Shown here: one piece after another, positions 53,163 to 61,162 of the stretch | How the letters are laid out: each line of letters starts with the position of its first letter | How positions within the stretch are numbered: the first letter of the stretch is position 1 | DNA from: Candidatus Iainarchaeum sp. | GTDB taxonomy: Archaea > Iainarchaeota > Iainarchaeia > Iainarchaeales > VGJJ01 | Length of the DNA stretch: 61,162 bases | Reading direction: 5' to 3' | Assembly (NCBI GenBank): GCA_043803765.1 | Contig: JAZDJQ010000011.1 | Location: 1 to 61,162 of the forward strand | Made by a program: the position numbers and the translations under genes | Notes under the pieces: model-generated | The model's database searches: none | Told to the model about the DNA's origin: nothing | Seen by the model: the letters and a program-made list of their open reading frames with translations, nothing else

Positions 53163-54658
<1,496 letters not shown>

Positions 54659-54870
54659 TTAATGCAATCCAAATGGATTGCACGGTGATTTGTGGGAGAG
54701 GAGCAGCAATTTTTCTCTCCCACATCTAACACCACTAATACCTTGTCTATCACGACGTGTGCATGCGCCTTTTTAGAAAAAGGTGCGCGAAAAAATTGTC
54801 CCAGGAAAGGGACAACCCGATAAAAATTGCTTCCAACCTTTCCCTGATTTTTCCTTTTTTTTTACGAATT

Positions 54871-55512
54871 TTATTTTATTTTTGAAAAAAAATTGATATT
54901 ATCTTCTGAGATCTTGGTTATATCGATAAAGTGGTCTGCTATTCTGCCCAATTCATAAGCCATTAAATTCGGATGAGAAAGAAGTATGACTTTTTTCCCC
55001 ATGTTTTTAATGTATCTCACAGACTCTAATAAATCCACGTCTCCTGTGCAGAGAATTGCTACATCATAATTATTAGAATGTCCAAATGTGAGCAAGTCAA
55101 CTGCTATCTGAACATCAACACCTTTTTGAAAGATTGATAAGTCGACCGGGGAGTATTGAAGCGGTTTCGTCCTAAGTTCAACAAAGTCACAATCAAGGAG
55201 TTCTTTGAAAATCTGTTTTTGAATCAATTGCTTTTTTTCGACGTGTTTTATTTTACCTTCAAGAAGATGCCTTTTTTCTAAATCAGTTTCATTTGCATAT
55301 TGCCGTTTGAGTTTTGCTTTTAAGTTATCTTCAAAAGTCCCCGTATATAGATATGTGCGAATAAAATGCGGGTTATAACGCGACCACGAAAGATTATTTT
55401 CTAAGTATTCAGAGAGAAATTTATGCAAACCGCCTATAACGGGTTCACGTTGCCCGAGTGCAGAAACAGACTTGTTGAAGTTCTCTAAATCAACAAAAAC
55501 CATTACCTTCAT
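54871..55512 (-). CDS. NYN domain protein 2
   Basis: FVDLEN, QKGVDV, TGDVDL; AT-rich. Confidence 0.92.
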   Translation of the reverse strand: MKVMVFVDLENFNKSVSALGQREPVIGGLHKFLSEYLENNLSWSRYNPHFIRTYLYTGTFEDNLKAKLKRQYANETDLEKRHLLEGKIKHVEKKQLIQKQIFKELLDCDFVELRTKPLQYSPVDLSIFQKGVDVQIAVDLLTFGHSNNYDVAILCTGDVDLLESVRYIKNMGKKVILLSHPNLMAYELGRIADHFIDITKISEDNINFFSKIK

Positions 55513-55521
55513 AAATAAAAT

Positions 55522-55555
55522 GGGGGCTTACCAGTGGCCTTCCGGCCCCGCCCCC
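55522..55555 (-). promoter_or_regulatory. GC-rich 5' leader hairpin of NYN gene 2
   Basis: GGGGGC...GGCC-GGAA-GGCC...GCCCCC on the minus strand, between TTTTTATA and the ATG. Confidence 0.5.
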
Positions 55556-55681
55556 TTACCATAGTAGGAAACAACTCATCCAAGAAGTATAAAAAACTAT
55601 CAGAAATTTTACGCACACCCCGTTTTCTTCACTAATGGCGTTTTTTTTCGTATTGGAAGTTGCCTTAAACTCATTTGGCAA

Positions 55682-55879
55682 CTATTTTCGTCTTTTCCTT
55701 TTCGTTTTACTTCTTGTTTTGCTTTTTTTTTCTACGTCTCCCCACAAAAAGGGAATGTCTACTTTCTGTGCGAGGACGAAAACGTCTCCTTCTTCTCCTT
55801 CTTTTTTCTTTGCGTGTCGTTTGCGATGCGCGTGTGCTGCTTTTTTCTTTCTTGTTTTTTTCTTTCCGTGGGCAACCAT
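55682..55879 (-). CDS. Small Lys/Arg-rich protein
   Basis: 65 aa; basic termini around a short hydrophobic core; CTTATA upstream. Confidence 0.5.
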   Translation of the reverse strand: MVAHGKKKTRKKKAAHAHRKRHAKKKEGEEGDVFVLAQKVDIPFLWGDVEKKSKTRSKTKRKRRK

Positions 55880-56079
55880 ATGCTTCTACGAATTATTTGG
55901 GTAATATAAGGAAGTTGCCTTTGCTGGCTTTGCCTGTAAAGTATAGAAAAAAAGAACTAAAACACTAAAACAACGGATTAAGCCCAATATCACGTTCAAT
56001 TTTTTTTTATCCGTCTCGTTTAAGCGGAGAGAAGGTATTACCGTTTATAACTTATTCTTCCCATTTTTGGTAATAGAGT

Positions 56080-56153
56080 GGGCCTGTAGCTCAGCCTGGT
56101 AGAGCGTCTCTTTTGCAACGAGAAGGTCATGGGTTCGAATCCCGTCGGGTCCA
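56080..56153 (+). tRNA. tRNA-Ala (TGC)
   Basis: Cloverleaf with G3-U70; TT-TGC-AA loop; TTTATAA at about 56044. Confidence 0.95.
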
Positions 56154-56370
56154 TTATTCGCTTTTTTCCTATTTTTTTCTGTAAAACAACAAGGTCGTTG
56201 CGTCAGCAATTTTTTTCCCGGGTTTTTTACGAAGTAAAAAGGCCGTTGTGGTAGATTTTTTTCGCCGGCCTTTTTCTAAAAGGCCGTGCGACAGCTATTT
56301 ATTCTCCAATTGTTCTTTTTTTCCAGCTAACTCCCACTACGCCATCAACCCTGAGGAGGATTGAAACAAG

Positions 56371-56769
56371 ATGGCTAATCCTGTTGTACATTTTGAGGTG
56401 CCGGTACGCAAGGCCAAAATTAACAAAGTGCGTCGTTTCTATGAAGATGTTTTTGGTTGGAAGATTGAGAAAGTAAAGGGAATGGATTATTGGATGGTTC
56501 ATACTGACAAGACGGACCCTAAGACGGGGATGTTGCAGAGGAAAGGAATGATTAATGGTGGATTAATGAAGCGTCGTATGGAAAAAGGCCCTGTGATTGT
56601 GTTGCAGGTAAATAATGTGAAGAATCATATTCGTAAAGCGGAAGGAAAAGGTGCAAAAATTCTCATGCCCGCGACCCCAATGGGGGAAATGGGAATCTAT
56701 GCTCGTGTCCAAGACCCGGATGGTAATATGATTGGGCTATGGCAGACCACTCAAATCAAAAAGAGATGA
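56371..56769 (+). CDS. VOC/glyoxalase family protein
   Basis: PVVHFEV, FYEDVFGW, INGGL, DPDGNMIGLWQ; GAGGAGG RBS. Confidence 0.92.
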   Translation: MANPVVHFEVPVRKAKINKVRRFYEDVFGWKIEKVKGMDYWMVHTDKTDPKTGMLQRKGMINGGLMKRRMEKGPVIVLQVNNVKNHIRKAEGKGAKILMPATPMGEMGIYARVQDPDGNMIGLWQTTQIKKR

Positions 56770-56776
56770 ATAAGAT

Positions 56777-56804
56777 AGAAGGAGGAATTGCAGAGCCTCC
56801 TTCT
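56777..56804 (+). terminator. Hairpin after the VOC gene
   Basis: AGAAGGAGG...CCTCCTTCT 9-bp stem. Confidence 0.5.
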
Positions 56805-56966
56805 TAAACATTTTCCACGTTGAGAGTAGCATGTCTTCACGGACTCTTAATTCACATGTCGTTTCGGCTACGATGATGGAGAGTCCTCGCTATACGGATT
56901 TTATTGTGTTGTGGCGGGGGACGTAATACTGGGATTTTTTTTTCTTCGTGTTGCGTCCCCCGCCTC

Positions 56967-57224
56967 TTGTCCTTATCGAATCTGACCCTTACCCAGTGCG
57001 AGCTAGTCGTACAATTAGTATCATTGGATAATGAAACCGCTTCGGCTCTCGCTCGATTGTTTTGCGAGGAGAGGCAGATACCCGAATCCACGTACTGGCA
57101 TAATGTGAGAAGGCTGCGAGCGCGTGGTTTTCTTACTTTTGGTGGGGGTCAACCTGTGCGTCTTACAGTGCAGGGGAGGTTCTTGGCCAAGCAACTCTGC
57201 GAGGGGGTGATAATTCCAAAATGA
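56967..57224 (+). CDS. Small winged-helix protein; start uncertain (TTG 56967 or 56904)
   Basis: TASALAR...IPESTYWHNVRRLRARG...VRLTVQG. Confidence 0.6.
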   Translation: MSLSNLTLTQCELVVQLVSLDNETASALARLFCEERQIPESTYWHNVRRLRARGFLTFGGGQPVRLTVQGRFLAKQLCEGVIIPK

Positions 57225-57262
57225 GTGAGTGAAACTAAAGCAAGCGAAAAAAGAAAAAAAAA

Positions 57263-57361
57263 TTAGAGTGGGAGTGCATTCACCACTCCCACCAACCCTA
57301 TTGTTAAAATTCCTAAAAATCCCATTATTTTAATTCGATACATCATGGCTTGTTCGCTCAA
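57263..57361 (-). CDS. 32-aa single-TM peptide (not in ORF track)
   Basis: MSEQAMMYRIKIMGFLGILTIGLVGVVNALPL; GGGAGGTGG RBS, TTATAAA upstream, hairpin plus U tract at the end. Confidence 0.55.
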   Translation of the reverse strand: MSEQAMMYRIKIMGFLGILTIGLVGVVNALPL

Positions 57362-57481
57362 AACAAATCCACCTCCCAACCAATTATCAAAGAAAATTTC
57401 CTACTTTATAATAGACATTGTTCTGGTTCTTTTTTTCCTTTCATCATAAAGAATATATACTCAAGAATGTTTGCTTGCGTC

Positions 57482-57730
57482 ATGCTTCCTGTAGAACGTG
57501 CGAATAGGAAATTCTTGGACGGTATGGCAATCGGATTAACGATTGTGCTTATTTTAGCCATTTTTTTGAGCATGACGTCTCATTTTCATACGAGCGCGGG
57601 GTTGGTTATTTCCAAATCAATGGGCAGTAGTAGTGATAATAGAGGAATTCCTACCCTGCCCCATACTATAACAGCACCGAATTCGTCCTTTCCTTCTTCA
57701 TCTCCTCCTTTAAATGTAAAAAATAGGTGA
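57482..57730 (+). CDS. Small membrane-anchored hypothetical protein
   Basis: One TM helix and Ser/Pro-rich tail; AATATATA upstream. Confidence 0.45.
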   Translation: MLPVERANRKFLDGMAIGLTIVLILAIFLSMTSHFHTSAGLVISKSMGSSSDNRGIPTLPHTITAPNSSFPSSSPPLNVKNR

Positions 57731-58279
57731 GTATTGCCTTTTCGTTCTTATTGTGGGAATGATTATTCTATTCCTATTTTTTTCTTCGCCCTGCCGTCTT
57801 GTTTTTAATCCTTCCCAAAGAAGAGTTGTTCTAGTTCGTCCCTTCAAAAGGGGGATTGAATCATTCAAGCTTTAACAGCCTGAAATTGGGTGGAAGACCA
57901 AAATCAGTAAGGCAAAATAACGGCCTTTCTCTTTTTCTCTTTGACCCTTTTTCATGCGTTTGCAGCACCCGATTACGTCCTTGCAAAAGGTCCGGGTGTC
58001 ACAGGAGGAGGGTAGGGTTGGAGACTTTTCTTTTCAGCCTCTCGCGCGTTACAGCGCGGAAATGCACGTTTGTATTGCATTTTACCCAGTGATTCGTCAC
58101 AGGTCCACAACCGTTAAATAAAATAATAGTGAGTTCCGGGCTTGTTGGGATTTATTTTTGCTTATAACAATAAGTGAAATGAATCAAAATAAGCTAAGTA
58201 GAGTTCACACGGTTTTCTTATTGGGAATTGAGAAATCATTTCCTTATTTGAGAATCGTGGGAAGTCGAGAGAAAATTCT

Positions 58280-61162
58280 CATTCAGTCAATAAGCCTATT
58301 TGAGGATGGCTTGGTTTGGGAGCCGAAGAAGGACGTGGCAAGCTGCGAAAAGCATGGGGGACCCGCAAGCAGGGGCTGATCCCATGATTTCTGAATTATT
58401 CCATAAAGGAAAGGGCACCCCGGGAATCGAAGCATCCTAGTACCGGGAGGAAAAGACATCGAACGAGATGCGGGGAGTAAGGTCGACTGAAATCCGCAGA
58501 GGGCAAACCGAATCGCACGTGGTAACACGTGTGAGATGTGGAGTTTGGACTCTCGCACAACCGTTTTGGTGAGGACAAGTGTCTTGGAATAGACCGCCAT
58601 AGAGGGTGATAGCCCCTTGTCTAAAACCAAAAGGGTTGATTGGGAGTATCCCGAGTAGGTTGCGTTAGATATCGCTGCCGAACATTCCGCTCATTGCGCG
58701 GAAACCCTAAATACATCCCAAAACCGATAGCGCACGAGTACCGCAAGGGAAAGCTGAAAGAGTACCCTTCAAAGGGGGTGCAATAGCGCCTGAAACAAAT
58801 AGGTGACGGAGAGGAGCGGCGTTAAAGAAACGACGACGTGGGAAGCGCAAGCGACCATGTCCGATCAACGTTGCTCCGTACGTCCTGAAGCACGAGCGAG
58901 GGAGTTTGTGCACGTGGCGAGGGTAAGCTTGTTTAGAGCGTACTCGCAGGGAAACCGAATTGACCGCAACAACCGCAAGGTTGCCAGGGTCGCCATGTTA
59001 ACTGTGTGGTTAGTCACGAGCACCAGACCCGAAGCCTGGAGATCCACCCCTGGGGAGGTTGAAGGCGAGCTTCCACTCGCTGGAGGACCGAAACCAGTTT
59101 TAGTCCAACTATTTGGGTCACTTGGGGGTAGGAGTAAAATGTCATTCGAGCCAGGTGATAGCGGGTTCCTCTTGAAACGGCCCTTAGGCCGGCCTGGATG
59201 GAGGCGAGACACGGTGTAGAGATACTGATTAGGGGGTGTTGCCTGGAAACGGGTAGCCCCCTTGTCAAACTCCGAAGTTGTGTCTGCTGTAGAAGTCTGG
59301 AGTGGGGGAACGCGGGTAAGCCGCATTTCCGAAAGGGAAAGAACCCGGTGTACGGTTAAGGTCCATAAGTGGTTTCTAAGTGTGATTCAAACTGCGTTGG
59401 TTTCCTTAGACAGTGGGGAGGTAGGCTTAGAAGCAGCCATCCTTCAAAGAAAGCGTAACAGCTCACCCATCTAGGACGCCAGCCGGGAAGATACGCTGGG
59501 CTCAAGAAGCTCACCGAGACCGTACGGCACGTTCTGTGAACGTGATCCAGTAAAGAGGTGGTTGGGTCGCGCCGAAGTGGGGGCGAAAGTTCCCATGGAG
59601 CGGCTTGACATATGGATCCTCGCGCTAGTAATAACATAGAAGAGTGAGAATCTCTTCCGCCGAAAGGGCAAGGGTTCCTTAGCGCTTGTCATAAGCTAAG
59701 GGTTAGTCGGTCCTAAGTGTTCACGTAAAACGCGAAACACGAAAGGGAAACAGGTTCATATTCCTGTACGACCCGTGTACGAATTTTTGGCAACAAATGG
59801 AACGCATGAGACGGTTTTGGCTAGGTCGTGCCGGCTCGTCTGCCGGTTCAAGATCTATAATCCCCCGGAGAATCGTGATGATGAGAAAGGGGATAAAGGA
59901 TTGGAGCAGCAATGTACGACTAAGGCCGGAATCCCGTGAAAATCGTGCGTTCAAGAATCATGGGTCTCCGTACCGAGAACCGAGAAAGGTGCCCCTGGCT
60001 GAGAAGGCCAAGGCGTTCCGGGACAAACTCTCGTAAGGGAATTCGGCAATCTAGCCCCGTATCTTAGGTATAAGGGGTGCCTCTTCATGCGTAATGAGGA
60101 GGTTTCAATAACAAGAGGAGTCCGACTGTTTATCAAAAACATAGGTGACTGCAATGCCGCAAGGCTGAGTATAGTCACCGACTTCTGCTCACTGCAAGTA
60201 CCTGAAACCCCGTTTCAACGGGACTAAAGGCTTGTGAAGAGCGGGCCTAACTCTGAGGCTCTCATGGTAGCGTAATACCTTGCCGGTTTAATGCCGGCTT
60301 GCACCAAGGAAGTAACGAGATTCCTGCTGTCCCTACGAGGGGCCCGATGAACTCACTACGCGGTGAATATGCCGCGGAACTCCAACGGGAAGAGAAGACC
60401 CCACGGCAGTTTACCACACCCAGCCGTTGTGGTAGAACTGGGACTGTACAGTGTAGATGGGAGCGTCGAGGGCGTGACGCCAGTTGCGCCGGAGCACCAA
60501 TGTAACACCATCCTGTTCTATTTCTACTGCTTACCTCCGCAAAACGGAGGGACACCGGTTGGCTTGGTGGTTTGACTGGGGCGGTACGCCCCTGAAACGA
60601 TATCAGGGGCGCCCAAAGGTCTGCTCAGGAGAGTCAGAAATTCTCCGTAGAGTGCAAAAGCAAAAGCAGGCTTGACAGTGGTCTACATAGCAAGGACCGC
60701 TGATGGGAAACCAGGGTTTAGCGAGCGATAGTGTGTCACGTAATGGGACCCTATTCTGACAGTGAACCGATCCTGGGGGTAACTGAGTGGTTGCGGGTGA
60801 GAGTCCATATCGACCCCGCAGTTTGCGACCTCGCCGTCGTCTCAAGTCATCCTGGCTGGGCATAACCAGCCAAGGGTGCAGGGGTTTACTGATTAAAGAC
60901 TTTCGTTAGTTGGGTTAAGAACGGTGCGAGCCAGTTTGGTTACTATCTGTTGGAGTTGCGGTTGGTCTAAGGGTAAGCTTCGCTGAGTACGAGAGGAACG
61001 GCGAGGCGCTGCCACTGGTGTACCAGTTGTCCGACAGGGCACCGCTGGGTAGCTACGCAGTAGTCGATAAACGCTGAAAGCATCTAAGCGTGAAGCGACA
61101 CCTGAACAGAGACCAACAATCCAGAACTGCAAGGAGATAAACTTGTGTCACTGGACAAGCGT
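58280..61162 (+). rRNA. rrl: 23S rRNA, 3' end cut by the window; 5' end approximate
   Basis: GGATGGCTTGG, AGTACCGCAAGGGAAAG, GACTGGGGCGG P loop, AGTACGAGAGGAAC sarcin-ricin loop, GCTGAAAGCATCTAAG. Confidence 0.98.

Follow-up and report, generated by a model that had tools for sequence, protein, structure and literature searches.

A clade-wide variant peptidyl-transferase centre in the 23S rRNA of Iainarchaeota

Results

We analysed a 61,162-nucleotide stretch of archaeal DNA (the window), which is the whole of contig JAZDJQ010000011.1 (C11) of a Candidatus Iainarchaeum genome (assembly GCA_043803765.1; 1.02 Mb in 19 contigs, 93% complete). In its archaeal-type 23S (large subunit, LSU) ribosomal RNA (rRNA) gene, at 58278..61159 on the forward strand, roughly a dozen bases near the catalytic centre that are normally fixed have been altered. 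The bases A2503, U2504, G2576 and U2552 (E. coli numbering throughout) are treated as near-fixed parts of the catalytic pocket, and several classes of drugs contact them or are resisted through changes there. In our best explanation, which we consider quite probable, the gene, present once in the genome, encodes a functional 23S rRNA of an archaeon of the Iainarchaeota (a DPANN lineage), with the first shell of the centre kept and the second shell on the A-site side replaced and held by selection. The variant set is no error but probably a working alternative design, and is shared and mostly conserved across the order. A first-pass annotation of this DNA had proposed a natural ribosome with an alternative second shell; at the level of sequence, the proposal is supported because the genome has a single 23S, the derived bases hold throughout a deeply branching order and the same letters occur in RNA libraries.

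Substitutions around the catalytic centre

We aligned E. coli positions 2400-2640 with the window by MAFFT. Searching E. coli genomes with the region by BLAST returned short 23S pieces only, and rrlH of the K-12 record (L025:2760-5663) was used as reference. The alignment has no gaps over positions 2442-2640, so that the window coordinate there equals the E. coli number plus 58331. As a second check we used an Infernal alignment to the Rfam archaeal LSU model, in which upper case marks highly conserved consensus. The two agree, which disposes of misalignment as an explanation, and both place every substitution listed in the first-pass annotation where it had been reported.

The variant sites fall in domain V, and all features in this section lie on the forward strand. 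The central-ring strand (positions 2445-2454; 60776..60785) carries A2448G (60779) and A2453U (60784) and leaves G2447, A2450, A2451 and C2452 unchanged. Positions 2497-2510 (60828..60841) carry A2503C and U2504C (60834-5) together with G2509U (60840), and G2505 and U2506 are unchanged. Helix 92 with the A loop (positions 2547-2561; 60878..60892) shows C2551G, U2552G, C2556U and G2557A (60882-60888) around an unchanged G2553, U2554 and U2555. The 3' strand of helix 90 and the adjoining ring (positions 2568-2588; 60899..60919) carry U2572 (60903), G2576U (60907), C2579U (60910) and U2586A (60917), with G2582-U2585 unchanged, and positions 2598-2608 (60929..60939) carry A2600C (60931) and C2606U (60937) on either side of an unchanged A2602 (60933). 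Departures from upper-case archaeal consensus in the Infernal alignment comprise A2448, A2503, U2504, G2509, U2552, C2556, G2576, C2579, U2586 and C2606. Position 2572 had been counted among the unusual changes; the U is indeed present, but it is the usual archaeal state (Rfam consensus 'u'). The equivalent base in H. marismortui is U2607 (PMC2577335).

The first-shell bases A2451, U2506, G2553, U2585 and A2602 are intact in the window, as had been reported, and so are the P loop G2251-G2253 (GGG; 60579..60581) and the core of the sarcin-ricin loop (60986..60999), which matches the Rfam archaeal consensus. Since these first-shell bases and the P loop touch the substrates, conventional catalysis would be expected by analogy. 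The reported covariation of pairs 2514-2516/2568-2570 was borne out: both sides have changed, to A-U, G-C and U-A, and all three remain Watson-Crick.

Two other positions were noted. G2032U was considered as an extra change relative to E. coli and dropped because the Rfam archaeal consensus is variable there. The pair 2057/2611 (window 60393 and 60942), which the archaeal consensus has as C-G and E. coli as G-C, is A and A in the window and A with C or A in relatives.

Copy number, congeners and RNA libraries

The gene gives a full-length match to Rfam RF02540 (model positions 1-2987; 2374.7 bits, where the gathering score is 50). This is the only LSU match in the whole source genome, so the 23S is single-copy there and no second, canonical gene accompanies it. 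Three one-contig genomes, one of the same genus (G015) and two others (G019 and G033), likewise have a single LSU match each.

Within the genus, all eight 23S rows are identical at 68 tabulated sites near the centre (one row, G001, being partial), and domain V of six congeners is 91-97% identical to that of the window. Contigs from RNA libraries of three studies, a kind of library made up mostly of rRNA, show the window's letters. The first (X1 record 7) covers 60647-60838 with 0 differences, the second (X3 record 29) covers 60759-61008 with a single difference at 60805, and the third (X2 record 17) covers 60300-60933 with 15 differences, 0 of them in 60770-60933. The agreement of congeners and RNA-library contigs argues against an error at the contig end. 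A further contig over the region, from a run that may be DNA (X15), has 46 differences that are listed in part, and was not used as support.

Conservation across the order and phylum

We ran a pattern spanning positions 2500-2524, with 2503 and 2504 free and the flanks exact, over 215 genomes of the phylum. It matched in 84, of which 82 belong to the window's order; most of the 131 genomes without a match have no assembled 23S. At positions 2503/2504 the order matches read CC in 71/82, CU in 8/82 and UU in 3/82, so that C2503 is found in 79/82 and A2503 in 0/82. We then aligned 95 23S rows of the phylum with E. coli, leaving out duplicate or partial loci (L022-L024, L097 and L101-L103). Nineteen rows shorter than 1800 nt were set aside, and the 76 near-full rows (70 from the order and 6 from sister orders) were used for counts and for a tree built after removal of the centre columns. 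One 23S (G037) has an alignment gap over positions 2492-2506 and is uncounted at those sites.

Several derived bases are fixed or nearly so. G2448 and A2557 occur in 76/76 rows, U2606 in 74/76, and G2551 in 70/76, which are all the order rows. U2576 (67/76) requires 2 changes on the tree, and position 2503 (C in 67, U in 4 and A in 4) requires 3. C2600 and U2579 are each present in 66/76 rows, C2504 in 61/76 and U2509 in 46/76, and position 2586 is A in 51, G in 21 and U in 4. Two changes absent from the window occur among its relatives, G2447A in 4/76 rows and U2452 in 35/76. Among order rows alone, G2448, G2551, A2557 and U2606 are each found in 70/70, U2576 in 67/70 and C2503 in 65/69. G2576 is kept only in the 6 sister-order rows and in the basal family f25; U2576 therefore arose within the order.

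The first-shell bases A2451, G2553, U2585 and A2602 are invariant in 70/70 order rows and U2506 in 69/69, a count that covers these five bases and leaves the P loop and the sarcin-ricin loop aside. Across the order, mean entropy is 0.22 for 74 centre positions as against 0.62 for all 2,576 aligned 23S positions, and 51% of positions are invariant in the centre as against 30% across the 23S. The centre thus remains the most conserved portion of the molecule in the order; the derived bases are therefore conserved, which favours selection on a working alternative over decay. The window itself deviates from the order majority at three sites, G2552 (19/76 rows), U2556 and U2572. The feature is accordingly no single-genome oddity: it belongs to an order and is extreme in this genus.

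A few 23S sequences of the phylum stand apart. The sole fragment with a fully canonical centre, A2448 included, is on a 3.2-kb contig (L091; G211:C75) that may be a contaminant. The 23S of G097 (L054; family f21, 61% complete) is almost identical to that of an f24 genome, G141 (L071; branch lengths 0.01), and its rRNA contig is probably mis-binned. Two 23S genes (L005 of G033 and L014 of G018) are interrupted in helix 89 near position 2476 (at window 60807/60808) by some 75-85 additional AT-rich bases, which may be a small intron or an expansion. One sister-order 23S (L096; G208:C11:18340-22052) has large insertions and spans 3.7 kb compared with about 3.0 kb.

Interplay between sites

According to Nissley et al. 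(10.1101/2024.11.12.623245), the E. coli partners of 2504 and A2453 are C2452 and U2500, respectively, and room for an altered 2504 has to be made by 2572 and the ribosomal protein uL3. We tabulated these positions jointly over the 76 rows. Positions 2452/2504 read UC in 34, CC in 27, CU in 14 and UU in 0, so that U2452 is found only with C2504. Positions 2572/2452 read AU in 35, AC in 26, UC in 15 and UU in 0, so that U2572 is found only with C2452. Position 2453 occurs with 2499 as A-U, G.U, G-C, U-A and also in pyrimidine-pyrimidine combinations. Joint counts of this kind suggest compensation at 2452/2504, 2509/2579 and 2552/2556 but do not prove coevolution.

The uL3 finger and methylation at 2552

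The first-pass annotation had proposed looking for changes in uL3, and one is present. The uL3 gene of the source genome lies outside the window (G000:C14:73884-74987; L224:1483-2589, minus strand) and encodes a frame of 368 amino acids. The tip of its finger reads SPLNP where solved archaeal and eukaryotic uL3 have the conserved GPWHP. The alignment is gap-free there, also against Pyrococcus/Thermococcus-type chains, so that the loop beside 2572 has archaeal length. In yeast, the tip tryptophan contacts A2940 (E. coli 2572) and its W255C mutation exposes E. coli 2556, 2572 and 2573 (PMC2577335).

We compared 89 uL3 tips across the phylum. The tryptophan is replaced in 16/16 genomes of the genus, by Leu in 15/16 and by Ile in 1/16, and is kept in 61/62 other genomes of the order, the exception (G087) having Ile; the 11 sister-order genomes have Trp in 6 and Phe in 5. 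A one-to-one compensation between this tryptophan and the rRNA was considered and rejected, as outside the genus the residue does not track U2572, G2552 or U2556.

U2552 is a conserved site of 2'-O-methylation (Nissley et al. 2023, PMC9976906), and in the window it is G. No phylum genome (0/215) scored above the cut-off of TIGR00438, the RlmE equivalog family (best 48 bits), a model that also recovered only 2/14 controls. The best FtsJ-family open reading frame of the source genome (G000:C4, 328 amino acids) looks TlyA/RlmM-like and gives 17 bits with rrmJ. Fibrillarin is present (216.5 bits), and guide-RNA methylation is therefore possible.

Occurrence outside the phylum

We scanned a collection of 185,579 species genomes with the same pattern, requiring a non-A base at 2503. 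This gave at least 117 stretches and at least 80 loci, a biased lower bound. Among the 80 loci listed, 67 are 23S and 13 are chance non-rRNA matches. At least 15 loci have the G2448-type signature, G2448 with C or U at 2503; eight are titled Candidatus Iainarchaeum, and the others among the matches listed are titled only 'archaeon', 'bacterium' or Micrarchaeota. At least 17 loci are of a Methanomassiliicoccales type with C2503 and an otherwise canonical centre, one of them binned as 'Clostridiales'. At least 17 more are of a Pacearchaeota/Nanoarchaeota type that combines C2503 with U2576, A2586, G2551.A2557 and A or G at 2552; among the matches listed, two of these (L176 and L181) also have C2504, and the title of one of these two records describes a complete chromosome.

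Smaller groups comprise at least 8 Woesearchaeota/Undinarchaeota-like loci (C2503 in 7, U2503 in 1), at least 5 other archaeal loci with C2503, at least 2 DHVE2 loci with U2503, at least 1 Nitrososphaerota locus with CC at 2503/2504, and at least 1 Nanoarchaeota locus with an insertion, whose shifted offsets left it untabulated. At least 1 locus is a bacterial-type 23S, in a Rhodothermus metagenome-assembled genome (MAG; L170), with C2503 in an otherwise canonical centre; either misassembly or a rare variant among bacteria would explain it. As far as these sequences go, C2503 by itself is a recurrent archaeal variant, and much of the window's set apparently recurs, independently, in Pacearchaeota. 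Three records titled Desulfonema, Clostridiales and Vogelbacteria (L104, L121 and L144) carry 23S pieces of Pacearchaeota or Methanomassiliicoccales type, probably through binning contamination of public MAGs.

Discussion

The replaced second shell would comprise four parts: the floor of the A-site cleft (2452/2504 and 2453/2499-2500), the layer beneath that floor (2576, 2572 and 2509.2579), the A loop with the accommodation gate (2551.2557, 2552 and 2556), and the tunnel entrance (2503 and 2586). We propose that the replacement was acquired stepwise near the base of the order and would now be under purifying selection. By analogy with the cryo-EM structure from Pyrobaculum calidifontis, the invariant bases may be held in place by other, non-canonical pairings together with a displacement of neighbouring elements (2572 and the uL3 finger), so that fold and activity would be retained. 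A likely side effect of an altered A-site cleft would be an altered natural sensitivity to inhibitors that bind there.

Highly divergent centres have been described in Thermoprotei and Methanomethylicia, with up to 6 positions changed in 2447-2453/2500-2504; in P. calidifontis, cryo-EM revealed rearranged base triples, and there is evidence that uL3 length governs the mutability of 2453, 2500 and 2504 (Nissley et al., 10.1101/2024.11.12.623245). The Iainarchaeota case resembles these centres in that the changes are natural, clade-wide and at consensus-conserved positions, four of them (A2448G, A2453U, A2503C and U2504C) in the same two segments. It also shares the archaeal-length uL3 loop and, in the four relatives noted above, G2447A, and the published proposal that uL3 and 2572 make room for a changed 2504 fits it. 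Unlike in the published set (G2447A, C2501A and C2453/C2500/C2504), of which the window shares U2504C only, C2501 and U2500 are kept here. The Iainarchaeota set is larger and mostly different (2448, 2503, 2509.2579, 2551.2557, 2552, 2556, 2576, 2586, 2600 and 2606), and the tip tryptophan of uL3 is lost in this genus, unlike in those centres. The lineage too is a different one, DPANN archaea found, by their run labels, in groundwater, sediment, river, lake, soil and ice, as against hyperthermophiles.

Natural variation in the archaeal A loop is rare and has been reported as U2554C/U2555C in Thermoproteota (Nissley et al. 2023, PMC9976906). The present variation is of the same rare kind but affects other bases: 2554 and 2555 stay U, and 2551.2557, 2552 and 2556 change, with G at 2552 in the genus. 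In E. coli 23S studied in vitro, A2448, A2503, U2504, U2586, C2551, C2556 and G2557 tolerate mutation (d'Aquino et al. 2020, PMC7049736).

The first-pass annotation had allowed that the variant set might be already common and described. It is common in the lineage, the single change A2503C is common in several archaeal groups, and the general phenomenon has been known since 2024 in other archaea; for this lineage and this set of positions we found no description. The main text of Nissley et al. (10.1101/2024.11.12.623245) does not mention DPANN, Iainarch- or Nanoarch- names or positions 2503, 2576 and 2552, and its extended data and supplements may cover more clades. Our search of the published literature found no account of centre variation in DPANN or Iainarchaeota, of this position set or of natural C2503. 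A whole archaeal order lives with C2503/C2504/U2576; in this genus G2552 is added and the uL3 finger lacks its tryptophan. The space of working active-site sequences would thereby be widened beyond the 2024 Pyrobaculum case, which gives the engineering of ribosome active sites a template from nature and lets one ask which second-shell contacts serve A-site accommodation, nascent-chain sensing and inhibitor binding.

Several observations weigh against a selected replacement of the second shell. The first-pass annotation had coupled G2509U with C2579U; both changes are present, but they form an uncompensated U.U mismatch rather than a compensated pair. The A-loop changes it listed are likewise present, but the closing pair C2551-G2557 has become G.A, both bases being flagged as non-standard by Infernal, and is also uncompensated. 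None of the tree-aware sign tests on independent pairs (2452U+2504C, 2509U+2579U and 2552G+2556U) reached significance (p 0.5-1). On the tree, at least 12 switches are counted at position 2452 and at least 13 at 2586, which has the look of near-neutrality. The tryptophan loss in uL3 is a feature of the genus alone, and U2572 or G2552 is found in other families that retain the residue. Finally, contigs in RNA libraries establish presence and are no proof of transcription, and all genomes of the lineage are metagenome bins.

Some of these points would be expected if the changes reflect neutral or slightly deleterious drift in small-population, probably host-dependent DPANN under relaxed selection, with no distinct architecture or phenotype being maintained. 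Evolution in the lineage is rapid (identity of uL3 within the genus is only 64-75%, and terminal branches of the 23S tree are 0.1-0.35), toggling is also frequent at 2453 (at least 11) and 2509 (at least 10), the two Watson-Crick pairs just mentioned are plainly lost, and comparable changes occur in other DPANN groups. Such drift would not readily account for derived states that are near-fixed across the order, for a centre far less variable than the remaining 23S, or for two base combinations that were never observed (U2452 with U2504, and U2572 with U2452). We therefore regard drift of this kind as possible but on balance doubtful.

Alternatively, the changes may have been selected for insensitivity of the cleft and tunnel entrance to natural products, a scenario compatible with a functional, selected second shell. 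U2504C, A2453C, U2500C and G2447A are resistance changes for linezolid, anisomycin or chloramphenicol (Nissley et al., 10.1101/2024.11.12.623245), and the yeast uL3 tip mutant W255C resists peptidyl-transferase inhibitors (PMC5331904). Several changes in the window thus coincide with laboratory resistance positions, and G2447A and U2452 occur in relatives. We also take G2576U and C2452U to be resistance mutations, and U2576 has separate origins in Iainarchaeota and in records titled Pacearchaeota. For U2504C and, presumably, G2576U the base change itself is the same as in laboratory or clinical mutants. Resistance alleles, however, are single drug-selected changes that tend to carry a cost and to affect one rRNA copy among several, unlike the roughly ten changes fixed together here, order-wide, in a single-copy gene. 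The uL3 change differs from yeast W255C in being a natural Leu or Ile that is fixed in the genus, where the rRNA has also changed at 2552, 2556 and 2572. Moreover, these organisms have no known inhibitor, producer or phenotype, changes also fall at sites without a known drug link (2448, 2509.2579, 2551.2557 and 2606), and the coincidence may merely mirror mutation-tolerant positions. Inhibitor evasion as such is thus unlikely. What drove the replacement may have been either drift with selection acting on the new bases or inhibitor evasion.

An artefact (contig-end misassembly, chimerism of the rRNA, contamination by a foreign contig, or a decaying pseudogene whose canonical counterpart was left unassembled) is highly improbable: the 23S does end only 3 bases from the contig end in a 19-contig bin, and mis-binned rRNA contigs such as that of G097 and the canonical G211 fragment exist in the data set, but the contig continues for 58 kb beyond the gene, its letters recur in 7 congeners, in 79/82 order matches and in RNA contigs of three studies, its helices covary properly over a full-length Rfam match, and no second copy was found in the source genome or the one-contig congener.

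More tentatively, and with odds that we judge to be against it as a whole, the functional second shell seen here may be one instance of a second stable design of the A-site half held by DPANN, with C2503, U2576, A2586, G2551.A2557 and a base other than U at 2552. This design would have been reached separately in Iainarchaeota (in one order) and in Pacearchaeota/Nanoarchaeota and would be maintained by selection, altering accommodation, nascent-chain sensing and inhibitor sensitivity. It would have gone furthest in this genus, with G2552 and the uL3 tryptophan loss.

The rRNA locus

The same locus carries a 16S rRNA gene 3.6 kb upstream of the 23S (53163..54658, forward strand; Rfam RF01959, 1339.3 bits). 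Between the two, ARAGORN places a tRNA-Ala(UGC) gene at 56079..56154 on the forward strand (Rfam tRNA at 56080-56153). Besides this tRNA, the 3.6-kb gap (window 54660-58277) contains frames that look protein-coding: one of 213 amino acids on the reverse strand (54871-55512), and two on the forward strand, of 132 (56371-56769) and 106 amino acids (56904-57224). The 16S and 23S genes may thus not form a single compact operon.

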